Origin: a virus
Taxonomy: Duplodnaviria > Heunggongvirae > Uroviricota > Caudoviricetes
Reading direction: 5' to 3' (one strand)
Virus record (IMG/VR): IMGVR_UViG_2740892235_000015
Location: 1-10,289 of that record
Length of the DNA stretch: 10,289 nucleotides
Part shown: positions 1 through 9,969 of the stretch, in pieces
Numbering within the stretch: the stretch's first letter is position 1
How the letters are laid out: every line of letters begins with the position of its first letter
The notes under the pieces: model-generated
The model's database searches: none
What the model was told of the DNA's origin: nothing
Seen by the model: only the letters and a program-made list of their open reading frames with translations
Translations under genes and position numbers: made by a program

Positions 1-1242
1 ATGGCGAGAAAAACACCCCCATTAACCACAGTACAGATCAAAGCAGCCAGACCAGCAGAAAAGGAATACACCCTACAGGACGGCGGAGGGCTTTTTCTCC
101 TGATCAAACCGTCCGGATCAAAACTCTGGAGATTTTCCTACTACCGACCATCGGACAAAAAAAGAATATTGCTGAGTTTTGGATCGCTTGATGATGTTTC
201 CCTGGCTGATGCCAGAAAACGCCGTAGCGAGTACAGGGCGTTAATTCGTGCCGGAACTGACCCGCAGGACCACGAGAGGCAAAAAAGAGAGACAGAGGCC
301 CGAAGACAAGGGAACACGTTCGAAAATGTGGCAACAGCATGGTACCAGGTGAAAATCAGCCAGAATCTGGCCCCCAATACGATTAAAGACATCTGGCGAT
401 CGCTGGAAAAATATGTATTCCCGTTCATCGGCAACACGCCAATAGACACCCTGACCGCTCGCAGGTTCGTTGAGGTGCTTACCCCCATCAAGGAACGTGG
501 CAACCTGGAAACGCTCAAGCGAGTTTTACAGCGTATAAATGAGGTAATGGATTACGCCGCCAATAGTGGGATGATTGATGCCAATCCGGCTATGAATGTG
601 CGTAAGGCGTTCCCCTCCCCTGTAAAAAAACATATGCCAACAATCCGCCCCGAACAGCTGCCGGAGCTTATGCAGGCTTTATCAGTATCGGCAACAGAAC
701 GGCAGACCAGATTACTGATTGAATGGCAGTTACTGACCGTAACCCGTCCCGTTGAAGCATCGTCGGCACGCTGGGAAGAAATCGACATGGAAGCGCAACG
801 CTGGACCATACCCGCCGGACGCATGAAGATGCGCCGCGACCACGTTATCCCGCTTTGTGACCAGGCTATGGCAGTGCTGGAGGCTATGAAACCAATCAGC
901 CACCACCGCGATTATGTTTTCCCGAGTCTGAAAGACCCACAGCAGCCGATGAACAGCCAGACCGCTAACGCAGCATTACGACGCATGGGATTCGCTGGCG
1001 TGCTGGTGTCTCATGGATTACGCGCCATATTCAGCACAGCAGCGAACGAAGAAGGCTTTGAGCCGGACGTAATAGAGGCCGCACTTGCCCACGTCGACAC
1101 CAACGAAGTCAGACGGGCATACAACCGGAGCAACTACATAGAAAAACGCATCGTGCTTATGCGCTGGTGGGGCGAATTTGTCGAGGCTGCGGCGACGGGC
1201 GTAACCCTCGCCAGTGGTAAAAGGGGTATCCGAGCCGTTTAG
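1..1242 (+). CDS. int: Tyrosine recombinase, P4/CP4-57-type phage integrase
   Basis: 413-aa ORF. C-terminal catalytic signature of tyrosine recombinases (SHGLRAIFSTAANE ... EVRRAYNRSNY with terminal Tyr) and an N-terminal arm-binding-like region. Followed by an alpA-like gene as in P4-like islands. The window starts exactly at its ATG, so the att site would lie upstream, outside the window. Confidence 0.93.
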   Translation: MARKTPPLTTVQIKAARPAEKEYTLQDGGGLFLLIKPSGSKLWRFSYYRPSDKKRILLSFGSLDDVSLADARKRRSEYRALIRAGTDPQDHERQKRETEARRQGNTFENVATAWYQVKISQNLAPNTIKDIWRSLEKYVFPFIGNTPIDTLTARRFVEVLTPIKERGNLETLKRVLQRINEVMDYAANSGMIDANPAMNVRKAFPSPVKKHMPTIRPEQLPELMQALSVSATERQTRLLIEWQLLTVTRPVEASSARWEEIDMEAQRWTIPAGRMKMRRDHVIPLCDQAMAVLEAMKPISHHRDYVFPSLKDPQQPMNSQTANAALRRMGFAGVLVSHGLRAIFSTAANEEGFEPDVIEAALAHVDTNEVRRAYNRSNYIEKRIVLMRWWGEFVEAAATGVTLASGKRGIRAV

Positions 1243-1340
1243 CTGTACAGAAAACCAGTAAAAACTACGAAAACCATTTAAAACCGTCGTATAATTGCAT
1301 CACATTTAACGACGAGGCCTTGAAAAATGAAACTGTTAAG

Positions 1341-1571
1341 ATGCAAACAAATTTCAGATGCAATTGCGACGGGCTGCAACTGGCCCTGATGGTTCAGCAT
1401 GAATTTTGGTCAACCTACGATCCGGAGGACAGAACGACGGCCCCATCAAAAAAACAGGTAGTAGATTTCCTGGTATCCCGTGGGGCTTCCAGAAATCTGG
1501 CTGTAAGTATTGATAAGGTTGTACGTCCGGCATCCATGAAGACCGGAGGCAGGCCAAAAAAATGGCGGTAA
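1341..1571 (+). CDS. Hypothetical small protein (76 aa from ATG 1341; alternative TTG start at 1320)
   Basis: ORF ends 10 nt before a canonical rho-independent terminator. A perfect -10 hexamer TATAAT lies at 1290-1295, with a poor -35. The overlapping minus-strand ORF 1354..1620 has a less protein-like composition. No recognisable domain. Confidence 0.3.
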   Translation: MQTNFRCNCDGLQLALMVQHEFWSTYDPEDRTTAPSKKQVVDFLVSRGASRNLAVSIDKVVRPASMKTGGRPKKWR

Positions 1572-1581
1572 CAATCCTGAA

Positions 1582-1605
1582 AGCGGCAGAAATGCCGCTT
1601 TTTTT
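1582..1605 (+). terminator. Rho-independent terminator
   Basis: Stem AGCGGCA / TGCCGCT (7 bp) with loop GAAA, followed by a run of 7 T. Confidence 0.6.
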
Positions 1606-1632
1606 ATAAATCCCTTTCAAATCATCAATATA

Positions 1633-1720
1633 AAAAACGGTGTATACCGTTTAAAAACGGTGAGTACTGTTTTTCCCTGCATCCGATGATTTACCGTATT
1701 TCTCACCGGAATACACCGGA
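1633..1720 (+). promoter_or_regulatory. Repeat-rich region upstream of alpA (candidate promoter/operator or recombinase-binding sites)
   Basis: Direct repeat AAAAACGGTG at 1633-1642 and 1653-1662 (20-bp spacing). Inverted repeat ACGGT-gtat-ACCGT at 1637-1650. Direct repeat ACCGGA at 1705-1710 and 1715-1720. GAGG SD at 1726-1729, 9 nt before the alpA ATG. Confidence 0.3.
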
Positions 1721-1738
1721 TTAATGAGGTAAATCACG

Positions 1739-1945
1739 ATGGAAGCAATCAAAAAAGTCATCTTTCGCCAGGAAGTAAAAAAACTTATCCACATTAAGGC
1801 AGACAGCACGCTGCAAAGCATGATCAACGCCGGAGAATTCCCGCAGGGTTTTCGTGTCGGTTTGCGCCGTCGCGGATGGTATGAGGAAGACGTAATCGCA
1901 TGGATGAAAGAACGAGAACAAGAAGCGCGCGGAACGACCGCTTAA
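1739..1945 (+). CDS. alpA: AlpA-family helix-turn-helix regulator (prophage excision/transcription activator-like)
   Basis: 68 aa. Sequence pattern typical of the AlpA family (KKLIHIKADSTLQSMINAGEFPQGFRVGLRRRGWYEEDVIAWMKE). Position immediately downstream of int. GAGG SD. Confidence 0.8.
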   Translation: MEAIKKVIFRQEVKKLIHIKADSTLQSMINAGEFPQGFRVGLRRRGWYEEDVIAWMKEREQEARGTTA

Positions 1946-2066
1946 CATATATAGGGCAAATGATGAACATAAAAAAAGCGGCCCCGAAATGGAGCCACCT
2001 TTCTGAACAATTAACCCGCTGCGCCGTATGTGTCAACAATCATAAGCCTGGGCATGATAACCGCGA

Positions 2067-2270
2067 TCAGGCTGGTGGGCAATTATCTTTCTTGTTGGGG
2101 CCGTATTGTGCTGCCATTTTCATCCGTTCAGAACGTGAATATTTTTTTAGAAACTCATCAAGGACAAAAGCGCATGGTGCGAATCTTTCTGATTCATGCT
2201 CGAGCGCCATATTTTCGTGCTCTCTGTTCGTTTTTTGCGATGGTGTATCGGTTGATTCTTTATTGGTCAT
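2067..2270 (-). CDS. Hypothetical small protein (67 aa), second gene of RHH operon 1
   Basis: Minus-strand ORF starting MTNKESTD. Its ATG and first three codons (ATGACCAA) lie inside the conserved R1 element directly downstream of the RHH gene. SD is weak (AGG). No recognisable domain. Confidence 0.45.
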   Translation of the reverse strand: MTNKESTDTPSQKTNREHENMALEHESERFAPCAFVLDEFLKKYSRSERMKMAAQYGPNKKDNCPPA

Positions 2271-2323
2271 TGTGTGTACCTGTAAAGCAATGCGCCGTAG
2301 TACCTCACGCCACGGCGCTGATG
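2263..2323 (-). repeat. R1 copy a: conserved intercistronic element with stem-loop
   Basis: 45-nt core at 2279-2323 is identical to 3460-3504. Contains a hairpin, stem GCGCCGT / ACGGCGC with a 13-nt loop. TTGGTCAT at 2263-2270 (the start-codon region of the downstream minus gene) is also shared, with an 8-nt variable spacer between. Confidence 0.85.
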
Positions 2324-2327
2324 TTTT

Positions 2328-2501
2328 TTATCCTTTGGGTTCAATACCGCGTTGCTGTAATTCTTTTCGGAGTACTCGCTTGATCCAGGTGGCTAAAGAA
2401 GTGTCACCGTCTGCTTTCGCTGCCTCTTCAAGTTGTGCTCTGAATTCTTCTGGTAGCCGCATTTGGTATGGAGGCGATCGCTTTTCCAATGGTGTTGACA
2501 T
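2328..2501 (-). CDS. Ribbon-helix-helix (Arc/MetJ/CopG-type) DNA-binding protein, 57 aa
   Basis: Hand translation of the minus strand gives MSTPLEKRSPPYQMRLPEEFRAQLEEAAKADGDTSLATWIKRVLRKELQQRGIEPKG. The MRLPEEF...L...A......S...WI...L pattern is a classic RHH strand-helix-helix. AAGGG SD 9-10 nt upstream. Not in the supplied ORF track, presumably because it is below the length cutoff. Confidence 0.7.
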   Translation of the reverse strand: MSTPLEKRSPPYQMRLPEEFRAQLEEAAKADGDTSLATWIKRVLRKELQQRGIEPKG

Positions 2502-2541
2502 GGTAATTACCCTTAATTACTATAGTTACATGGTAATTACC
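2498..2541. promoter_or_regulatory. Candidate operator: two copies of the perfect palindrome GGTAATTACC
   Basis: ACATGGTAATTACC at 2498-2511 and 2528-2541, 30 bp centre to centre, with a TAATTAC half-site between them (2514-2520). Lies in the divergent region abutting the RHH start codon and upstream of the rightward leader. Confidence 0.5.
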
Positions 2542-2569
2542 ATTGTACTTACCGTTATACAAAAAACAA

Positions 2570-2611
2570 CGCCCCGCAGTGGTGGCTCACATACGGGGCG
2601 TCTAACCAAAC
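2570..2611 (+). repeat. R2 copy a: leader stem-loop plus conserved TCTAACCAA tail
   Basis: CGCCCCG-ca-GTG-gtggct-CAC-ata-CGGGGCG (2570-2600) followed by TCTAACCAAAC (2601-2611), then GAGG SD and ATG at 2632. Same architecture as 3822-3860. Confidence 0.6.
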
Positions 2612-2631
2612 CATTAATTGAGGTAACGATT

Positions 2632-2718
2632 ATGGCTATAAAAGAGCATAGCTTACTCTTTATACACNNNNNNNNNNTTCGCTGGCGGTTATGCAACTTA
2701 GTGCTGATATGGCGCTGA
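2632..2718 (+). pseudogene. Probable degenerate or interrupted Ash/Icd-like paralog
   Basis: Starts MAIKEHSLLFIH, paralleling the MVAVNHIPHLVH start of the 3881 gene, with the same upstream leader element. Interrupted after 12 codons by the N run. Reads IWR then stop after the gap where the paralog has VWRFLAL. Frame across the gap is unknowable. Confidence 0.3.
2668..2677. other. Run of 10 N (unknown sequence, possible scaffold gap or masked bases)
   Basis: Directly visible in the sequence. Confidence 1.
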
Positions 2719-2767
2719 ATGAGGCCAAAGCTATCCTGATTGCTGATTGTGAAAATGGGGGGGGGTT

Positions 2768-3001
2768 ATGCGTGATGATCGTTTTTATTCCCTGAAACAA
2801 GAATTTTCCGGCGTATCTGATGATGCGGCTGATGCGCTTTCGTCAATGCCAGAACTTATTAGAGCGGCTTTTTTCTTACTTTCCACGAAAGAATATAAAT
2901 CAACGGGACTTGATGTACTGAATATCGCCGCCGATTATGCGGAATATGTGGCAGAGGCGCGTTACAGAAGAAAATTTCCTGAGGATGTAAGCCATGCGTG
3001 A
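2768..3001 (+). CDS. Hypothetical small protein (77 aa)
   Basis: ORF MRDDRFYSLKQEF... with helical, protein-like composition. A G9 homopolymer immediately upstream serves as the SD region. The stop overlaps the start of the next ORF (ATGCGTGA), suggesting translational coupling. The opposite-strand ORF 2859..3116 looks like antisense noise. Confidence 0.5.
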   Translation: MRDDRFYSLKQEFSGVSDDAADALSSMPELIRAAFFLLSTKEYKSTGLDVLNIAADYAEYVAEARYRRKFPEDVSHA

Positions 3002-3210
3002 TATTTACCACGAAACAACAGAACGCGTATTTCTTGCACTTTCTCACAGTGAAAACATGCTGGAAATATTGCGCATATGGCTTGAAACACTTGGCGACAA
3101 TGAACGCGACAAACAAAAATCAAGAATTGTCACGGCATTAATAACGCTTCTTGAGCCTGTAATAAATGAGTTGCAGGAAATAGAGACATTGCACGACAGA
3201 TATAACGAAC
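2994..3210 (+). CDS. Hypothetical small acidic protein (at least 72 aa; 3' end lost in N run)
   Basis: ORF MRDIYHETTERVFLALSHSENMLEILRIWLETLGDNERDKQK..., with GAGGA SD at 2981-2985. Net acidic and helical. Runs into the N run at 3211, so the true stop is undefined. The 292-aa extension in the ORF track is antisense to real minus-strand genes and is not credible. Confidence 0.45.
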
Positions 3211-3220
3211 NNNNNNNNNN
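3211..3220. other. Run of 10 N (unknown sequence, possible scaffold gap or masked bases)
   Basis: Directly visible in the sequence. Lies between convergent genes. Confidence 1.
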
Positions 3221-3223
3221 TAC

Positions 3224-3451
3224 TCATCCTGGCGGGCGATTCTTACGGGACTTTAGCCGCCGTGGGCAGCTTGCTAAAAATGCCTCCAACGCGAATAGTC
3301 CAGGTTTCATTTCTATCGGTATTAGTTGGATATTCAGAGGATTAGCCAGTTCGGCTTCAAGGCGAGCACAGGTTTCTAACTGCCTTTGCCGAATGATTTC
3401 ATCTTCTTGCGTATGCGTGTCTTGTATTGGTGATAGTGTGTTGTTGGTCAT
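3224..3451 (-). CDS. Hypothetical small protein (75 aa), second gene of RHH operon 2
   Basis: Minus-strand ORF starting MTNNTLSP. Start region ATGACCAA is shared with the 2067..2270 gene and embedded in the R1 element. The stop codon is reached before the N run, so the ORF is complete as shown. No recognisable domain. Confidence 0.45.
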   Translation of the reverse strand: MTNNTLSPIQDTHTQEDEIIRQRQLETCARLEAELANPLNIQLIPIEMKPGLFALEAFLASCPRRLKSRKNRPPG

Positions 3452-3504
3452 GGTACTGCCCTGTAAAGCAATGCGCCGTAGTACCTCACGCCACGGCGCT
3501 GATG
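3444..3504 (-). repeat. R1 copy b: conserved intercistronic element with stem-loop
   Basis: 45-nt core at 3460-3504 is identical to 2279-2323. TTGGTCAT at 3444-3451 is also shared. Sits between the stop of RHH gene 2 and the start of the downstream small gene. Confidence 0.85.
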
Positions 3505-3508
3505 GTGA

Positions 3509-3688
3509 TTATTCTGATTCTTTGGCCTTGCGACGCTGGCGGTATTCAACTTCCCGCTTTAATGCAGCTGTAACAAACTGCCCTGTACTTTCGCCGGGCA
3601 TTTTTACCGCCTCAACATTGTTCATAACTTCATGTGGAACCCTTGCCGCAACTGTTTGTGATTTTGCGTTTACTGCTTTTGTCGCCAT
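3509..3688 (-). CDS. Probable ribbon-helix-helix DNA-binding protein, 59 aa
   Basis: From ATG at 3688: MATKAVNAKSQTVAARVPHEVMNNVEAVKMPGESTGQFVTAALKREVEYRQRRKAKESE. RHH-like strand (TVAARVPHEV) followed by two short helices. GAGGGG SD 8 nt upstream. The ORF-track start at 3697 is a GTG. Confidence 0.6.
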   Translation of the reverse strand: MATKAVNAKSQTVAARVPHEVMNNVEAVKMPGESTGQFVTAALKREVEYRQRRKAKESE

Positions 3689-3717
3689 GTTGAGCACCCC
3701 TCATAAAAAACAAATGC

Positions 3718-3814
3718 AGTATGCAGGAAAAAAAATAAGTGTTCAACACTTGACGTGTTTAACACCTCGATTTAAATTGGTGTTCAACACCTTATTTAGG
3801 CAAGGTGTTGAAAC
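3718..3814. promoter_or_regulatory. Divergent promoter/operator region of module 2
   Basis: Rightward sigma70-like promoter: -35 TTGACG (3750-3755), 17-nt spacer, -10 TAAATT (3773-3778). Leftward: -35 TTGAAC (complement of 3741-3746), 17-nt spacer, -10 CATACT (complement of 3718-3723). Inverted-repeat motif GTGTT-N-AACAC at 3739-3749, 3755-3765 and 3780-3790, plus a half-site variant at 3805-3814, overlapping both promoters. Confidence 0.5.
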
Positions 3815-3820
3815 GACGAA

Positions 3821-3860
3821 ACCCCGCACTGTAGGAGCAGTAACGGGGCTTCTAACCAAC
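3821..3860 (+). repeat. R2 copy b: leader stem-loop plus conserved TCTAACCAAC tail
   Basis: CCCCG-c-ACTG-taggag-CAGT-aa-CGGGG (3822-3848) followed by TCTAACCAAC (3851-3860), then AGGAG SD and ATG at 3881. Both stems differ in sequence from copy a but keep the same architecture. Confidence 0.6.
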
Positions 3861-3880
3861 AACGTAAACTAGGAGCCGTT

Positions 3881-4444
3881 ATGGTTGCTGTAAATCATAT
3901 ACCACACCTTGTACACACACAAACTGCCTTTGTGTGGCGTTTTCTGGCCCTGAATATCGGAGAAAAAAACCAGTTGATCGCCAGTGTCGAAAATAGCTAT
4001 GATTCCCGCGCACCTCATAAAACGGGTGTCGGGATTAGCCTCCTGAAAACAACTGAAGCGCACAGCACGCGCCCCGCGTGTTTTTTTGTGCCGCATAGTC
4101 ACACCTTATCAATGGTGGGCTGTACGGGGGCGGAGCAATCCGCGCCGGTTTCTTCAGTGTCCGGTAAGGCTAACCCTGTACAGTCCGCCACCAGCGAAAT
4201 TAGCCTTTTGCGTGGCGGTTATCTTAACCACACTGAGGAGGCTGCCAACATGGCTACTACCCCTGCCCTCGTACATTCTCAAACAGCCTTTATCTGGCGC
4301 TTTATTGCCTTTGGCGCGTCAGACCATCAAATCATCCACGTAACCGCCTGGACGGAACGCGAAGCGCGTAACCGTTGCCCGTACGGTTGTGTTGCTGTGT
4401 TCGCCGCCCGTATTCGTCAGGGGGCGCACCATGCACAATTATGA
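3881..4444 (+). CDS. Tandem-repeat protein, possibly Ash/Icd-like (P4-associated family)
   Basis: 187 aa with an internal duplication: LVHTQTAFVWRFLAL near the N-terminus and LVHSQTAFIWRFIAF around residue 130. AGGAG SD at 3871-3875. An in-frame internal ATG at 4250 is preceded by GAGGAGG (4235-4241). Family assignment is from memory of Icd-like sequences (FxWRF and NRC motifs) and is unverified. Confidence 0.55.
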   Translation: MVAVNHIPHLVHTQTAFVWRFLALNIGEKNQLIASVENSYDSRAPHKTGVGISLLKTTEAHSTRPACFFVPHSHTLSMVGCTGAEQSAPVSSVSGKANPVQSATSEISLLRGGYLNHTEEAANMATTPALVHSQTAFIWRFIAFGASDHQIIHVTAWTEREARNRCPYGCVAVFAARIRQGAHHAQL

Positions 4445-4631
4445 AGCGCACTTACCTGTAGTTCTTAATGTGCCGTCAGATTATACGGGACGCGTTTTGA
4501 TATTTCTCGATAAAGGGAAAGTGAAATCACAATGCCGCCTTAGAAATAATGAGGTTGTTGGTTCTCTGGCTTTTTTTTCTGAGGCCTGTATTCGTGCCGG
4601 AATAAAACTTGAATCACTGACAGGAAAATAA
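4431..4631 (+). CDS. Hypothetical small protein (66 aa)
   Basis: ATG at 4431 preceded by a GGGGG SD. Overlaps the 3' end of the upstream gene by 14 nt. No recognisable domain. Confidence 0.4.
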   Translation: MHNYEAHLPVVLNVPSDYTGRVLIFLDKGKVKSQCRLRNNEVVGSLAFFSEACIRAGIKLESLTGK

Positions 4632-4636
4632 AAACC

Positions 4637-4936
4637 ATGAAAAAGAAAAATTCTGGCTTTACTGCCAGTGACTTCTCTCGGCCTGAAATCCGCCCCGGCG
4701 ATATTTTCCGTGATAACTACGGCGGTACGGTAACGATTAAAGGCGTGGCAGAACGGCGCATCACCTACCGTCGTGAAGGCTACGAATATGATTGCGTGAT
4801 GCCTGTTTATCAGTTCCGGCGTGATTTTTCTCTGGTACAGACCGCGCCGCATAACGTGCCCACCTGCAGGGAGAAAGCACGCGCCAATATTCAGAAGATG
4901 AAAAACATGATTAACGGATTCAGGGGCAAGAAATGA
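4637..4936 (+). CDS. Hypothetical protein (99 aa)
   Basis: ORF with AGGAAA SD-like sequence. Its stop overlaps the start of the replication ATPase gene (ATGA), suggesting co-translation within the replication operon. Confidence 0.5.
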   Translation: MKKKNSGFTASDFSRPEIRPGDIFRDNYGGTVTIKGVAERRITYRREGYEYDCVMPVYQFRRDFSLVQTAPHNVPTCREKARANIQKMKNMINGFRGKK

Positions 4937-6330
4937 AAAGCGCACCGAACTTAAAAAAACAGCCTTACGACAAGATGACCGAAGTCATCATTTTTGCGGG
5001 TAGTGATGCGTGGGCACATGCGAAACAGTGGCAGGAACAGGACGGGCGACTGGCTGGCGATAATGTGCCTCCCATTGTGCTGGCTGATGATCAACTGGAT
5101 GAACTGGCAGACCTGAGAATCATCGACGAGGGGCGCTATTGTGTCCGGCTGTACAAGGCAGGCCACATCAGGCCATCAAATATTAATGCCATTGCGCACA
5201 AGCTGGCGGCGGCGGGCGTAACTGATGCGAATTATTACCCCGAAGGGATACACAGCCAGAAGCGGGAGAACTGGCGCGAATATCTGGAACGGGAGCGGGG
5301 GAAAAAGCCAGGGGAAGAACACCACCAGCGAAAAACCACGCTACCGATGAGCGTTGGATCTGCCGGATACGACACGCAATTAGATTACGTGGTAAAGGGG
5401 ATTATTCCGGCATCGTCGCTATGCAGCATATACGGGGCAAGCGGTTCCTATAAATCATTCCTTGCGGGTTCGTGGGCGTGTCACGTTTCCACGGGCCGCC
5501 AGTGGGGAGGCCGCAGGGTGGCGCATGGCGCTGTTCTCTATGTGGTTGGTGAAGGCGGTATCGGCGTTCCGCGTCGTGTAAAAGCCTGGGAGGTTGTGCA
5601 CGGTGAGCAGGTGAAAAATCTGTATCTGGTAAACCGTCCAGTTTTTCCGGCTGTCCCGCTTGATGTTGATGAACTGGTTATCGCTGCCCGTCAGGTGGAG
5701 CGGGAAACGGGTAAACCTGTACGCATGATTATTCTTGATACTCTGGCGCGTTGCTTTGGTGGCAATGATGAAAATGATTCCCGTGATATGGGGGCGTTTA
5801 TCCGTGGGTGTGACGAGCTTAAACGGCGCACAGGGGCCACGGTGCTGGTGGTTCACCATTCCGGCAAGGATGAGACGAAAGGCGCGCGCGGTTCCAGTGC
5901 ATTTCGTGCATCACTGGATGCTGAATACCGGATACGCAGGGAGGACGCAGGAAGCGAAGCGCTGGTTATCTCATGCACCAAAATGAAGGACGCGGAGGAA
6001 CTCAAAGAAGCCGCATATGACTTACGCGTGGTGGAGCTTTTTACCGACGCTGACGGGGAGTTAATCACGTCGCTGGTGGTGGTGGATAAGCCGCGCCCTC
6101 CCGTTGAACTGGAGCGCATCGAGGAGGCAGGCAACAAGACGGAAAACCATACCGCGCTATGGGGATGCATACGTTCACGCACACAGCACGGCGACAAGTG
6201 CACGATCCCGCTGTTACGTGACGATATGAAAAAGCTGGGGTATGACACAAAACACCTTAAACGATGGTTAGCCAAACTGGAAAAAGACGACGTGATCTAC
6301 ATTGACGGTGATGATGTAGGACCACTGTAA
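4933..6330 (+). CDS. Replication ATPase/helicase, RecA-fold (RepA/AAA_25-like) with uncharacterised N-terminal domain
   Basis: 465 aa. Walker A GASGSYKS (aa 168-175), Walker B-like RMIILDT, and a VVHHSGKDETKG motif typical of RepA-like RecA-fold helicase-ATPases. The iteron array starts immediately after the stop codon. Confidence 0.88.
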   Translation: MKSAPNLKKQPYDKMTEVIIFAGSDAWAHAKQWQEQDGRLAGDNVPPIVLADDQLDELADLRIIDEGRYCVRLYKAGHIRPSNINAIAHKLAAAGVTDANYYPEGIHSQKRENWREYLERERGKKPGEEHHQRKTTLPMSVGSAGYDTQLDYVVKGIIPASSLCSIYGASGSYKSFLAGSWACHVSTGRQWGGRRVAHGAVLYVVGEGGIGVPRRVKAWEVVHGEQVKNLYLVNRPVFPAVPLDVDELVIAARQVERETGKPVRMIILDTLARCFGGNDENDSRDMGAFIRGCDELKRRTGATVLVVHHSGKDETKGARGSSAFRASLDAEYRIRREDAGSEALVISCTKMKDAEELKEAAYDLRVVELFTDADGELITSLVVVDKPRPPVELERIEEAGNKTENHTALWGCIRSRTQHGDKCTIPLLRDDMKKLGYDTKHLKRWLAKLEKDDVIYIDGDDVGPL

Positions 6331-6532
6331 AAAGTGGGCATTAAAAGTGGGAAAGGTGGGCAATTTAACGGAATTTTAACAAAATTACCCACTTTCCCAC
6401 GTGTATATATCCCAAAAAGTGGGCACTAAAAAAATACCTATGAAACAAGATGATATAAATCCCAAATTTCCCACGTTGGACGAAGTGGGAAAACGTAAAA
6501 AGTGGGCGAAAAAAGTGGGTAGAGGTGGGCAA
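6331..6532. repeat. Iteron array, candidate origin of replication
   Basis: About ten copies of (A)AAGTGGG(C/A)A or GGTGGGCAA in both orientations: direct at 6331-6340, 6343-6354, 6354-6363, 6416-6425, 6483-6493, 6497-6508, 6511-6520, 6522-6532; inverted at 6388-6400 and 6467-6474. An AT-rich stretch lies between them (6365-6412). Confidence 0.6.
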
Positions 6533-6784
6533 ATGACTCAAAAACACAGAGACAGAACAGAGCCAAAATATAAAGCGTTAGACATGACAGAGCACGCCTT
6601 AAAGGTGGCAATCAGAACGATAGACCGCCACGCGGGGGAAGGATACGCGAAGGAACATCCCGACCTGATAAGCGCATTCATGACCACAGCAGCAGCAAAC
6701 TTTGCCACGCTGACAGAACGGGAGATTGCCGAAGCGGAACAGGTAACAACAATCAACGTTAAAACCGGAGAGGTGGAATCATGA
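6533..6784 (+). CDS. Hypothetical protein (83 aa)
   Basis: ATG at 6533 with GAGG SD at 6522-6525. Start chosen downstream of the iterons rather than the ORF-track start at 6401. Stop overlaps the SSB start (ATGA). Confidence 0.5.
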   Translation: MTQKHRDRTEPKYKALDMTEHALKVAIRTIDRHAGEGYAKEHPDLISAFMTTAAANFATLTEREIAEAEQVTTINVKTGEVES

Positions 6785-7203
6785 CAGCACAGATAGCCGC
6801 TTACGGGCGGCTGGTGGCTGACCCACAGTTAAAGACCACCAGCAAGGGTACACAAATGGCGATGGCGAGTATGGCTGTCCCCCTGCCGTGCAGCCAGGCC
6901 GATGACGGAACGGCGACGATGTGGTTATCCGTCCTGGCGTTTGGCAGACAGGCCGACGCACTGGCAAAACACCACAAAGGCGAACTGGTGAGCGTGGCGG
7001 GTAACATGCAGGTGAGCCAGTGGACAGGCCAGAACGGCGAAACGCGGCAGGGCTGGCAGGTTATCGCTGACAGCGTAATCAGTGCCAGAACGGCGCGACC
7101 AGGTGGTAAAAAAGGCCAGCAGGGCCAGGCTACTGACGCACTGAACAGGGCAAAACAACAGGCGGGTAACGATGATCCGTACGGGGATAACATACCGTTT
7201 TAA
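6781..7203 (+). CDS. ssb: Single-stranded DNA-binding protein (SSB-like)
   Basis: 140 aa. OB-fold-like core resembling SSB (AFGRQA...KGELV.V.G.MQ...WT.Q.GE.R.GW). Gly/Gln-rich linker and a C-terminal acidic tail ending DNIPF, like the DDDIPF tail of bacterial SSB. Confidence 0.75.
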   Translation: MTAQIAAYGRLVADPQLKTTSKGTQMAMASMAVPLPCSQADDGTATMWLSVLAFGRQADALAKHHKGELVSVAGNMQVSQWTGQNGETRQGWQVIADSVISARTARPGGKKGQQGQATDALNRAKQQAGNDDPYGDNIPF

Positions 7204-7219
7204 GCAACGAGTGACAGAA

Positions 7220-7241
7220 GCCGGAGCAATCCGGCTTTTTT
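7220..7241 (+). terminator. Rho-independent terminator
   Basis: Stem GCCGGA / TCCGGC with loop GCAA, followed by T6. Lies 17 nt after the SSB stop. Confidence 0.7.
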
Positions 7242-7248
7242 GTAGGTA

Positions 7249-7430
7249 CTCCTGGTGGGGGTGGCCTGTCCACGGGGCGGGCGGCGCGGAAAAAAGCGCA
7301 TTTTTTGATTTTTATGGCACCATCACCACCACTATAAGTTATTGATATATTGAAGAATAAAAATTTTTAGTGTCGAATCAGGTTGTTTTTTGTTCATCAC
7401 TGGAGCGTTCCCGAAAGCATTTACAAAAAA
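7249..7430 (+). repeat. R3 copy a: duplicated intergenic control module
   Basis: GC-rich block at 7249-7312 nearly identical to 9786-9850. Shared TATAAGT (7333-7339), AGGTTGTTTTTTGTTC (7380-7395) and TTTACAAAAAA (7420-7430), with the same spacings as in copy b. Confidence 0.8.
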
Positions 7431-7669
7431 ACAGGCGCAAAAAAAGCGCCCCCGATTGCTGTTACCGGAGGCGCTTTTACACGACAAAGGAGTTTTTATC
7501 GCCAGGATGACGAGTCTTAATATTGCTTCAATAGCAAAAATGCGTCAATGGCTTTGCCTCTCTGAGAATAATCAGAAAAATCATAATCTGATTTTATGGT
7601 AGAAAATAATTTATCTATTACTTTTATCGATCAATAATGATGCCCGTTAATCAAAACGGAGGCGGATTT

Positions 7670-7864
7670 ATGCCAGAGAACAACACCAGAAAGCCGGATA
7701 AAAGTGCCACGGTACACATAGACGCCGGAACTATGGAGAAGATCGAACGCTATCAGCAGTTCATCAAAGATAATCACCCGGGTATGCCAGTGCCCACGAA
7801 AGGACAAATCACACGCAGCGCGGTTGAATACTGGTACAGGGCAACGTTAGGAGCCTGGCTATGA
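7670..7864 (+). CDS. Hypothetical small protein (64 aa)
   Basis: ATG at 7670 with GGAGG SD at 7658-7662. Stop overlaps the start of the protease/capsid gene (ATGA). No recognisable domain. Confidence 0.5.
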   Translation: MPENNTRKPDKSATVHIDAGTMEKIERYQQFIKDNHPGMPVPTKGQITRSAVEYWYRATLGAWL

Positions 7865-9750
7865 AAACATGGTTTTCCATTAAGGCTATGGCAGATGTTG
7901 TACATGTGCGCATTTATGACGAGATCGGCGGGTACGGTGTAAAAGCATCGGCACTTACTGACGAGATCAACGCGTGTGGTAATGCGTCTGAAATCCATCT
8001 TCGCATCCATTCACCTGGTGGCGACATCTTTGAAGGGCTGGCTATCTATAACGCTCTGAAAAATCATCCGGCAAAAAAAATCGTACACATTGAAGGCATG
8101 GCGGCTTCTATGGCGTCGTTTATTGCCATGTGTGGAGATCACATCGTTATGCCTGAAAACGCGATGATGATGATACATGCCCCCCGTGGTGTTACTGCCG
8201 GAGTGTCGGGCGACGTTCGCCGCTTTGCTGATCTGATGGACAAGCTGGGCGACACGATGGCAGAAACCTATGCCGGAAGAACGGGCAGGAGCAAACAGGA
8301 GATCACCTCAATGATGGAGGCGGAAACCTGGATGGATGGCAATGAGTGTAAGGCTAACGGCTTCGCAGATGAGGTTATACCCGCGATTACAGCAATGGCC
8401 CGAATTGAATCAAAACGAATCGGAGATTTTTCAAATATGCCGGAAAAAATTAAAAGCATGATCAGCCAGAAAACTGGCAGTGGCGAACAGGAACGACTTA
8501 ACGGAATCCGTGAATTGTTTGGCACCTTCAACGGAAGATATAACGACCTGGCTATAAGTTGTCTTGCGGATTCAGAATGTAGCGTTGAGAATGCACGCGA
8601 ACGCCTTTTACTCGCTATGGGTAAAGAATCAACGCCAACAAACAAAACCACCCCCGCAAATCTTTACTACGCGTACACGGATAACGGCAATATAACTGGC
8701 GATGCCATGCGTCAGGGGCTTAATGCGCGTCTTGGTCACGAACGGGCCGAACGCGGTAATCCTTACGCCATGATGAGTCTTTTCGATATGGCACAGGCAT
8801 CATTAACCCATCGTGGTATAAGCACGGGCAGCTACAGCACACGCTCGCAGATAGTAAACGCGGCATTCACCCACAGCAGCAGCGATTTTACAGATATCCT
8901 TGCTGGTGGCGCTGAAAAATCAGTGCTTGCAGGCTGGGAGCACAGCGGCGAAACATTCCGCCAGTGGACGAAAAAAGGTTCCCTTTCAAACTTCCGGGAA
9001 GCCCGCCGCGTTGGTATGAATGGCTTCTCAACGTTAAACAAAGTGCCGGAAGGGGCAGAATATAAATACATCACCACCAGCGATCGCGGTGAACCCATCG
9101 CGCTGGCTACTTACGGGAATATTTTCAGCATTACCCGCCAGGCGATAATCAATGATGACCTTGATCAGTTATCAACGGTGCCAATGGCTATGGGCCGTGC
9201 AGCATCAAGAACGGTGGGAAATCTGGTTAATCTGGTGCTTACAGGCAACGTAAAACTTTCTGACGGAATAACGCTGTTTGACAAAAAACACAGCAACCTG
9301 ATTGAAGCAGGACTGACAACACCGGGACTTAGTGCAGCACGTCACCTGATGCGCACACAGAAGGACAAAAATGGCGAAGTGCTGAATATTGCGCCTAAAT
9401 TCCTTTTAGTTCCGGCAGCACTGGAAGATCGCGCGTTGCAGATGATTAACTCAACCGCACCTTTCGGGGCTGATAAAAACAGCGGGATCTTTAACCCGTA
9501 CCACAAGCTACTTGATATCATCGTCGATCCCCGCCTTGATGATATCAGCGAAAAACAATGGTACATGCTTTCCGCACAGGGAACGGACACAATCGAGGTG
9601 GCTTATCTTGATGGCAATGACGAGCCTTACCTTGAACAGCAGGAAGGTTTTATCGTTGACGGCGTGGCCTGGAAAGTCCGTATTGATGCAGGTGTGGCAG
9701 CTCTGGATTATCGCGGTATGGTCAAATCAGGCGGTACCGATTCACTATGA
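7861..9750 (+). CDS. Prohead protease (ClpP-like, S14) fused to HK97-like major capsid protein
   Basis: 629 aa. The N-terminal ~190 aa match the ClpP pattern (IHSPGGDIFEGLAIYNALK ... GMAASMASFIAMCGD ... MMIHAPRGV, compare ClpP INSPGG, AASMGAF, MIHQP). The C-terminal ~300 aa resemble the HK97-fold major capsid family. A linker or scaffold-like region lies between. AGGAG SD. Confidence 0.88.
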   Translation: MKTWFSIKAMADVVHVRIYDEIGGYGVKASALTDEINACGNASEIHLRIHSPGGDIFEGLAIYNALKNHPAKKIVHIEGMAASMASFIAMCGDHIVMPENAMMMIHAPRGVTAGVSGDVRRFADLMDKLGDTMAETYAGRTGRSKQEITSMMEAETWMDGNECKANGFADEVIPAITAMARIESKRIGDFSNMPEKIKSMISQKTGSGEQERLNGIRELFGTFNGRYNDLAISCLADSECSVENARERLLLAMGKESTPTNKTTPANLYYAYTDNGNITGDAMRQGLNARLGHERAERGNPYAMMSLFDMAQASLTHRGISTGSYSTRSQIVNAAFTHSSSDFTDILAGGAEKSVLAGWEHSGETFRQWTKKGSLSNFREARRVGMNGFSTLNKVPEGAEYKYITTSDRGEPIALATYGNIFSITRQAIINDDLDQLSTVPMAMGRAASRTVGNLVNLVLTGNVKLSDGITLFDKKHSNLIEAGLTTPGLSAARHLMRTQKDKNGEVLNIAPKFLLVPAALEDRALQMINSTAPFGADKNSGIFNPYHKLLDIIVDPRLDDISEKQWYMLSAQGTDTIEVAYLDGNDEPYLEQQEGFIVDGVAWKVRIDAGVAALDYRGMVKSGGTDSL

Positions 9751-9756
9751 CAACAA

Positions 9757-9778
9757 GGCGGCACCAGCCGCCTTTTTT
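9757..9778 (+). terminator. Rho-independent terminator
   Basis: Stem GGCGGC / GCCGCC with loop ACCA, followed by T6. Lies 7 nt after the capsid gene stop. Confidence 0.7.
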
Positions 9779-9785
9779 GCGGGTC

Positions 9786-9969
9786 CTCCTGGTGGGGTGG
9801 GCCTGAACACGGGGCGGGCGGCGCGGAAAAAAGCGCATTTTTTTGATTTTATCGTCATCATCATCATGTGTATAAGTGATTGTTTTTAATTATTTTGATG
9901 TGAAAAAGATGATGAAGAAGGTTGTTTTTTGTTCGACATCTTTTAGCGTGACAGATTCTTTACAAAAAA
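9786..9969 (+). repeat. R3 copy b: duplicated intergenic control module
   Basis: GC-rich block at 9786-9850 nearly identical to 7249-7312. Shared TATAAGT (9871-9877), AGGTTGTTTTTTGTTC (9919-9934) and TTTACAAAAAA (9959-9969). Confidence 0.8.

Follow-up and report, generated by a model that had tools for sequence, protein, structure and literature searches.

The window analysed here, the whole 10,289-nucleotide (nt) stretch of Caudoviricetes DNA deposited as IMG/VR record IMGVR_UViG_2740892235_000015, is a phage satellite of Escherichia coli, probably of the capsid-forming phage-inducible chromosomal island (cfPICI) type. We examined the region between its AlpA-type regulator gene and the small icd-like gene that precedes its replication operon, and we compared it with 45 related loci and with 5426 complete E. 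coli genomes. An earlier note made from the DNA letters had described this region as the tandem duplication of a whole regulatory module, with one copy partly decayed and cargo open reading frames (ORFs) inserted between the copies. Two modules with an identical order of parts are present (approximately 2067-2667 and 3224-4444), as that note had proposed, and they lie next to each other in complete genomes, indicating that the second module is not a misjoin. The remainder of the description changes in what follows.

The first module, which we call cassette 1, consists of a leftward unit and a rightward start. On the minus strand lie RHH1 (2328..2501; 57 amino acids, subfamily A), a predicted Arc-like ribbon-helix-helix (RHH) repressor, and S1 (2067..2270; 67 amino acids), a small protein in the ORF list that matched PHROG 21027 (E 3e-12). 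Between the RHH1 stop and the S1 start is a 44-nt element with a 9-bp hairpin, termed e44 (copy 1, 2279..2322). The full 67-amino-acid form of S1 is intact in 23 loci, and locus L019 encodes a truncated form of 49 amino acids. An intrinsic-terminator-like hairpin with a U7 tail (1975..2003, minus strand) ends the RHH1-S1 unit; the surrounding fold (1955-2020, minus strand) has a predicted energy of -23.8 kcal/mol and a z score of -4.0, and the strength of this hairpin makes the leftward units look real. On the plus strand, a promoter-like site TTGACA-17-TACTAT (2495-2523, score 10/12) is overlapped by two putative palindromic operators of sequence ATGGTAATTACC (2500-2511 and 2532-2543). Downstream follow a leader hairpin (2569..2601, fold z -3.2), a conserved UCUAACCA and an icd-type start codon with its first 12 codons (2632..2667), which is truncated in the window by a run of N characters and in relatives runs on through a 50-nt joint, J. 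An Rfam scan found no RNA family above threshold in cassette 1, and a partial, below-threshold match to Atu_C8 proved to be the S1 terminator hairpin.

Cassette 2 repeats this arrangement with different sequences. Its minus strand encodes S2 (3224..3451; 75 amino acids, also in the ORF list), a second copy of e44 (3460..3503) identical to 2279-2322, and RHH2 (3509..3688; 59 amino acids, subfamily B), a repressor-like protein of the YlcI/YnfO family. Putative operator repeats of the GTGTTCAACAC type lie on the plus strand at 3737-3751, 3755-3765, 3779-3791 and approximately 3803-3813, and a rightward promoter-like site (3750-3778, score 9/12) sits amid them. A second leader hairpin (3818..3852, plus strand), again followed by UCUAACCA, precedes the ATG at 3881 that opens a so-called Ash ORF. 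Across 17 distinct variants of the leader hairpin, compensatory changes occurred in 6 of the 8 predicted pairs, supporting a conserved structure. The hairpin, taken with its margins at 2569-2615 and 3818-3865, always precedes GC(G/U)UCUAACCA(A/C). This combination may resemble the boxB-boxA antitermination signal of rrn type.

RHH2 matched NCBIfam NF041551 (YlcI/YnfO), a family without a stated fold, at 59.7 bits relative to a cut-off of 30, and it also matched PHROG 949. RHH1 matched PHROG 228, annotated as Arc-like repressor (E 4.9e-7), and gave subthreshold matches to Pfam Arc (E 0.008; 16.5 bits, under the cut-off of 20.4) and, weakly, to NCBIfam YlcI_YnfO_N (20.1 bits). An alignment of 11 RHH alleles revealed a single strand/helix/G-x-S/T/helix pattern, with R-h-P/D in the strand region and DG-D-S or G-E-S-T before helix 2, and separated the alleles into two subfamilies ending in RGIEPKG (A) or RRQRRKAKESE (B). 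Single-sequence AlphaFold2 models of RHH1 and RHH2 gave an extended N terminus and two helices, with pLDDT (per-residue model confidence) of 69 and 77, respectively; these are models of monomers, and the strand forms only in the dimer. Sequence searches of the PDB with RHH1 and RHH2 returned nothing informative. We also considered, and dropped, a type II toxin-antitoxin system composed of an RHH antitoxin and a small toxin. Neither S1 nor S2 had a toxin match in Pfam or NCBIfam, and the one match of S1, PHROG 21027, is a family of unknown function.

Comparison of the two cassettes bears on whether one arose recently from the other. DNA-level likeness between these units of approximately 650 nt is limited to approximately 120 nt, made up of the e44 region (2260-2334 versus 3441-3515; 75 nt, 85% identity, with the identical 44-nt core) and the leader (2561-2609 versus 3811-3859; 49 nt, 71% identity). 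Identity between RHH1 and RHH2 is 27% (E 0.02), and BLASTP gave no alignment of S1 with S2; by eye, S2 shares with S1 only an FALE-F---Y-type motif that S1 has in common with other S2 alleles. The operators differ between the modules, as had been noted before, with GGTAATTACC twice in module 1 and GTGTTCAACAC-type repeats three to four times in module 2. Partial decay of one copy is not what we found: S1, RHH1, the 10/12 promoter, the perfect palindromes and the leftward terminator of module 1 are all intact, and RHH ORFs at the upstream position, of various alleles, are intact in most relatives. Only the rightward gene of cassette 1 is broken, and it is cut at a joint that is fixed in relatives. 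What had been taken for a short remnant of this gene, an ORF reaching 2718, is a reading that crosses an N run; where relatives are intact, this ATG begins a frame of approximately 240 codons. A recent tandem duplication whose first copy is decaying and into which cargo was truly inserted would account for the shared order of parts, the short DNA repeats and the truncated icd-type ATG of cassette 1. Such an event should leave high identity along the whole unit and decay in one copy. We observed neither, and the proteins are 27% identical or unalignable while the genes, promoter and operators of cassette 1 are intact. The two cassettes are different alleles, both intact, rather than the products of a simple duplication followed by decay.

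The relatives contain the same cassettes in variable numbers and combinations. The earlier note had asked whether single-module versions exist, and they do: of the 45 loci, 13 contain at most one cassette, 31 contain two and a single locus contains three. The cassettes are joined by J (ACACAAACGCCCCGGAAACGGAATAATCCGTTTCATAGTTCGGTTTTGTG). Every two-cassette locus contains it with 0-2 mismatches, the three-cassette locus L002 has two copies, and loci with a single cassette lack it. Together with its flanks, J was found at 126 places in 111 of the 5426 genomes. The complete joint consists of 39 nt of icd start (13 codons) followed by the 50-nt J, abutting the stop codon of S2. Among E. coli genomes, 167 carry e44, at 250 places in total, and its conservation is 98-100% when the cassettes compared are otherwise unrelated; a search of a phage collection for e44 as a link to a helper gave no match. 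e44 is a satellite-restricted element, and it may act as an RNA processing site, in translational control of S or as a recombination linker.

Neither position is reserved for one RHH subfamily: A-B, B-B and A-A combinations all occur. The RHH1 cassette of the window, with its operators, occupies position 1 here and position 2 of 3 in the complete-genome locus L002, at 99.7% identity. Each of 13 RHH alleles that we examined has its own repeat motif in the promoter region, examples being GGTAATTACC, ATGTGTATATACACAT, GTGTACACCT, GTGTTCAACAC, GTGTAAGACA, TGTGCGCACA and CTGGAATCCAG; to judge from the DNA, such allele-specific repeats appear to be the signature of immunity-specificity cassettes. 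Homology between elements often breaks at 2322, the edge of e44. The finding of arrays of one, two or three cassettes with RHH alleles shuffled among positions supports the suggestion of recombination between related elements, and the variable arrays, the presence of both subfamilies anywhere and the clustering of breakpoints at the e44 edge likewise favor the view of the region as a hot spot for regulatory turnover. Tandem modules and their recombinational turnover are real and common, with the layout present in more than 100 complete genomes.

The window itself lacks J. In its place is a 533-nt block (2678..3210, plus strand) between two 10-N scaffold gaps (2668..2677 and 3211..3220), so that 2668-3220 as a whole replaces the joint. 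The block, which the earlier note had read as cargo, contains the 3' part of one ORF, a whole 77-amino-acid ORF (2768-3001) and a third ORF that opens at 2994 and is missing its final 17 nt; both edges of the block fall inside ORFs. Five assemblies that are 99.9% identical to window positions 1-2667 pass through J into the homologue of 3221 onward, and loci L001 to L004 likewise do so. The block is 100% identical to positions 6001-6533 of L004, L005 and L006, where it belongs to the rightward operon after icd in satellites at the tqsA site. In strain RM10809-3, this stretch lies 560 kb from a satellite resembling the cassettes of the window. In 34 of 34 loci, the homologue of the block lies downstream of all cassettes, and exactly 23 nt separate its end from the DUF4222 start; the exact 77-amino-acid protein was found directly upstream of DUF4222 in 10 of 10 distinct contexts. 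In the window, this slot between icd and DUF4222 is filled by another ORF (4389-4631). A run of approximately nine G residues at 2754-2764, just before the 77-amino-acid ORF, could give rise to sequencing or assembly trouble or to phase variation.

Searches for the deposited arrangement were negative. Assemblies encoding exact matches to the cargo protein, the integrase or the RepA helicase contained no N runs. None of the 5426 genomes covered at least 80% of 1900-4600 in one place, and neither the junction of the left arm with the block nor that of the block with the right arm (each allowing 0-30 nt between) was found in genome_contigs, viral_contigs or metagenome_contigs, a result that is weak taken alone, as N characters may have gone unmatched. 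IMG/VR contigs of similar size yielded 13 instances of the normal junction of the left arm with J. We also tried reading the N runs as 10-nt masks of contiguous sequence; the bases after the first N run fail to continue J. The 533-nt block is most likely a contig misplaced by the scaffolder, and, from its position in relatives, the real cargo slot would be the downstream one between icd and DUF4222. Cargo between the copies is thus not borne out: the supposed insertion is bounded by N runs, cut mid-ORF, stands in place of J and lies elsewhere in all 34 relatives. The earlier note had named a misjoined second module, revealed by resolving the N runs, as what would refute its reading, and it was right to point at the N runs; the misplaced piece is the cargo block and not the second module. 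Most simply, the block would be the alternative arm of a sibling satellite that shares the genome; finding no place for it within the long right-hand contig, the scaffolder would have put it into the nearest gap. The loss of exactly 50 nt would also be expected if an assembler such as Velvet (k = 51) left out k-1 bases behind a gap.

These results also weigh on the duplication scenario described above, in favor of which the deposited scaffold has the block between the cassettes. Both junctions of the block are N runs and both its ends cut ORFs, the missing bases are exactly the 50 nt found in every relative between the counterparts of 2667 and 3221, and the homologue of the block always abuts DUF4222. 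Together with the dissimilarity of the cassettes, these observations make a recent duplication with decay and true insertion very improbable. A wider chimera is a further explanation that we regard as improbable, if a little less so: two different satellites of one genome would have supplied the left contig (1-2667) and the right contig (3221-10289), which were then joined via J. In its favor, different satellites of a single genome (L003 and L004 of RM10809-3) carry J and its flanks in near-identical form, and a genome can hold up to six related places. Against it, the subfamily A 57-residue cassette, J, S2, the subfamily B 59-residue cassette, isrK, C4 and icd are contiguous in the complete-genome locus L002 at 99.7% and 96.2% identity, and the right end of the window (7219-8328, protease-capsid fusion) follows an identical integrase in L018, L022 and L025.

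The rightward part of module 2 is not a single gene. The ORF at 3881-4444, described previously as Ash-like, is a composite of a partial 5' icd copy of 28 codons (3881..3964), an isrK-like small RNA with its own terminator (4010..4086; terminator 4064-4082), a C4/CI-type antisense RNA (4108..4195) and an icd-like gene of 64 amino acids (4250..4444), all on the plus strand. The partial copy is a 96-97% match to the icd starts of L013 and L019, unlike 4267-4433, which matches the icd body. The isrK-like RNA scored 61.8 bits relative to a gathering score of 50 (Rfam RF01394), the C4-type RNA scored 75.4 bits relative to 45 and covered model positions 1-87 of 87 (RF01695), and icd scored 62.4 bits relative to a cut-off of 25 (NCBIfam NF033153). 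The Pfam Phage_ASH match (residues 40-133, DNA 3998-4279) overlies the isrK and C4 RNAs, leaving icd as the sole protein-family match there, and RefSeq annotation splits the counterpart in relatives into a partial "ash family" pseudogene and an Icd-like protein. "Ash" at this locus looks like the translation of conserved RNA genes rather than a protein. By eye, the C4 loop CUUCAGUGU could pair with ACACUGAGG at the icd ribosome-binding site through a 9-bp match. The satellite appears, as far as its DNA tells, to join protein-repressor cassettes with an RNA switch of the P1/P7/P4 type.

The 5' end of icd around an (AC)n-like CACACACAAAC is present three times in the window: in the remnant at 2632-2667, in the partial copy at 3881-3964 and in the real icd at 4250-4330. 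Insertions and joins seem to recur with breakpoints at this end of the gene.

A long stop-free frame crosses both cassettes on the plus strand. It begins with an ATG at 1960 after the alpA stop, runs through 1960..2667 and, once J is restored, continues at 3222-3872; of the 477 codons that separate the alpA stop from the ATG at 3881, 473 are open. This frame is antisense to S1, RHH1, S2 and RHH2, and it also crosses e44, the promoters, the operators and the hairpins. None of 2000 randomisations by shuffling reached its length. In 18 of 18 divergent S and RHH alleles, the same relative frame contains no stops, and the other frames usually contain 2-7. Relatives have open frames of 250-565 codons, and a Shine-Dalgarno (SD)-like sequence and ATG follow alpA in five different sequence contexts. 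Comparable frames, of approximately 470-565 codons if that of the window is included, lie at 7885-9582 in L021, 2909-4465 in L003 and 7885-9390 in L017. Where the frame is broken, the breaks sit just before the next icd-type ATG.

One explanation is that this plus-strand ORF is a real or additional gene, encoding an N-terminally extended Icd-like protein, and that the small leftward ORFs are its shadows. Gene callers and NCBI annotation do report such proteins (1304 of 263-604 amino acids), and many of those of 460-604 amino acids are named "Icd-like protein", a name they receive because the ORF is fused in frame to icd. The improbable openness of the frame and the SD-ATG starts also favor a gene. 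However, the leftward RHH ORFs match curated repressor families, are preceded by allele-specific palindromes and belong to units of which the first ends in a strong leftward terminator behind S1. Of 15 pairs, 13 had a lower ratio of nonsynonymous to synonymous substitution rates (dN/dS) in the minus frame, in a weak test in which the wobble positions coincide. The plus-frame product is rich in Cys, Ser and Arg, has no family match and would be encoded across promoters, operators and hairpins. A plus-strand gene is therefore unlikely, although we give it slightly more weight than the chimera. We read the open frame as selection for translatability rather than for a protein. A tentative extension of this idea, which we hold at clearly less than even odds, is that the frame serves as a bridge: ribosomes following RNA polymerase from an upstream helper-induced promoter might shield the transcript from Rho, override the RHH and C4 layers and silence the repressors by convergent transcription. 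Were this true, cassette number and allele choice would set which signals hold the satellite silent.

The account that we favor, at a probability of roughly 70%, is that this region is an immunity and control region in which two complete, different repressor cassettes stand in tandem, their arrays recombine and a cargo block has been misplaced in the deposited scaffold. Each cassette comprises a leftward operon of RHH, e44 and S, allele-specific operator repeats over a predicted rightward sigma-70 promoter, the leader hairpin with UCUAACCA and an icd-type start. One ancestral illegitimate join, which probably occurred once, would have linked an icd start cut after 13 codons to the end of the S2 gene. 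Homologous exchange and unequal crossing-over at e44, the leader and J, the conserved linkers, may then have let the arrays spread, reach one to three cassettes and trade alleles; the 533-nt piece would come from the cargo slot, probably of a second related satellite in the same genome. Each RHH dimer is predicted to close the rightward promoter of its cassette, so that two immunity specificities would act in series, and the downstream isrK-like and C4-type RNAs would control icd and the replication operon as in P1, P7 and P4. The plus frame from alpA to icd could let upstream transcripts, from alpA or the cassette 1 promoter, be translated across the cassettes and so escape Rho-dependent termination.

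Several observations weigh against this account. RHH1 missed the curated cut-offs of both Pfam Arc and NCBIfam YlcI_YnfO_N. Misplacement of the block is deduced from relatives, and a true insertion behind the two unresolved gaps retains a small probability. Synonymous resampling of the four genes kept the plus frame open in 11 of 2000 trials, so its openness is partly compositional, and the frame is broken once per cassette in L001, L004 and L007. With third codon positions coinciding in the antisense frame, dN/dS separates the strands poorly. The hairpin of J is not a canonical terminator.

Parts of this region resemble known immunity systems. As in P1/P7 immI and with the P4 CI RNA, a full-length C4-family RNA lies directly 5' of an icd-like gene in the leader of a rightward replication operon. 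In P1 and P7, expression is set by icd translation, which c4 RNA blocks, leading to Rho-dependent termination. The satellite differs from these systems in having one to three protein-repressor cassettes ahead of the RNA module, in its additional isrK-like RNA, in its partial copy of icd and in the absence of a following ant gene; a protein repressor is lacking in P4. As in P22 immI (Mnt and Arc), small Arc-like RHH repressors are divergent from a promoter that they overlap and are associated with palindromes, here putative operators. Unlike P22 immI, the satellite has two to three nonidentical tandem cassettes, each with a cotranscribed small S gene and a 44-nt hairpin, and no antirepressor gene. 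The isrK family match, which is above its gathering score, recalls the Salmonella Gifsy-1 IsrK locus (isrK-orf45-anrP), in which downstream expression needs translation of an upstream ORF through translational coupling (PMC4825925). In the satellite, isrK lies between the partial icd copy and the C4 RNA, and no anrP or antQ was seen.

The rest of the window agrees with its assignment to cfPICIs. A tyrosine integrase gene (1-1242) is followed by the AlpA-type excisionase/regulator gene (1739..1945, plus strand), which lies directly 5' of the cassette array; its product matched PHROG 66/2790, annotated as excisionase and transcriptional regulator (E 1e-7), and matched Pfam Phage_AlpA below the cut-off (E 0.003). 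Downstream of the array are genes for DUF4222 (4637-4936), a RepA/AAA_25 helicase (4933-6330), a single-stranded DNA-binding protein (SSB; 6781-7203) and a Clp-protease/major-capsid fusion (7861-9750). The cfPICI parts found are thus the integrase, the AlpA-like protein, the AAA_25 helicase, SSB and the protease-capsid fusion; the window stops short of any portal, terminase or adaptor region, such that the cfPICI set is seen in part. Close relatives in many complete E. coli genomes are annotated alike, with integration sites beside roxA, tqsA or yejM-type genes; many of them also have genes for capsid, protease and portal proteins. In its integrase, AlpA-type regulator, RepA-type helicase, SSB and own capsid-protease gene, the satellite resembles the EcCIEDL933, EcCICFT073 and EcCIMP1 types, and it shares with PICIs the integration beside conserved host genes and a size of approximately 10-15 kb.

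Two further repeats lie in this part of the window. Directly 3' of the RepA helicase gene, AAAAGTGGG(C/A) motifs are repeated at 6327-6530, which looks like an iteron-type replication origin of the satellite. An intergenic unit of approximately 125 nt occurs twice with 75-84% identity, first at 7218-7344, between SSB and the region 5' of the capsid-protease gene, and again at 9755-9882, after that gene. This unit contains a terminator hairpin, a G-rich stretch and an A/T-rich, promoter-like end, and it is probably a late-operon control element.

For PICIs of Gram-negative bacteria, AlpA has been described as the master regulator (PMC11773190), and Ash, Icd and YlcI/YnfO are listed as mere accessory annotations (PMC13612085). 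In the literature that we searched on Gram-negative PICIs and cfPICIs, neither the RHH cassette array nor J, e44 or the antisense open frame is described. Two practical lessons for annotation are that short contigs of sibling satellites may be scaffolded into the wrong slot and that "Ash protein" annotations can be translated RNA genes. The stop-free antisense frame offers a testable idea for how transcription might cross repressor genes. For this family of satellites, whose control is commonly ascribed to AlpA alone, our findings point to an extra, modular control layer beyond AlpA, in which one to three predicted repressor-operator cassettes of different specificities stand ahead of a P1/P4-type RNA switch. 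Exchange of these cassettes at short conserved linkers could decide which satellites exclude one another and which helper signals induce them.

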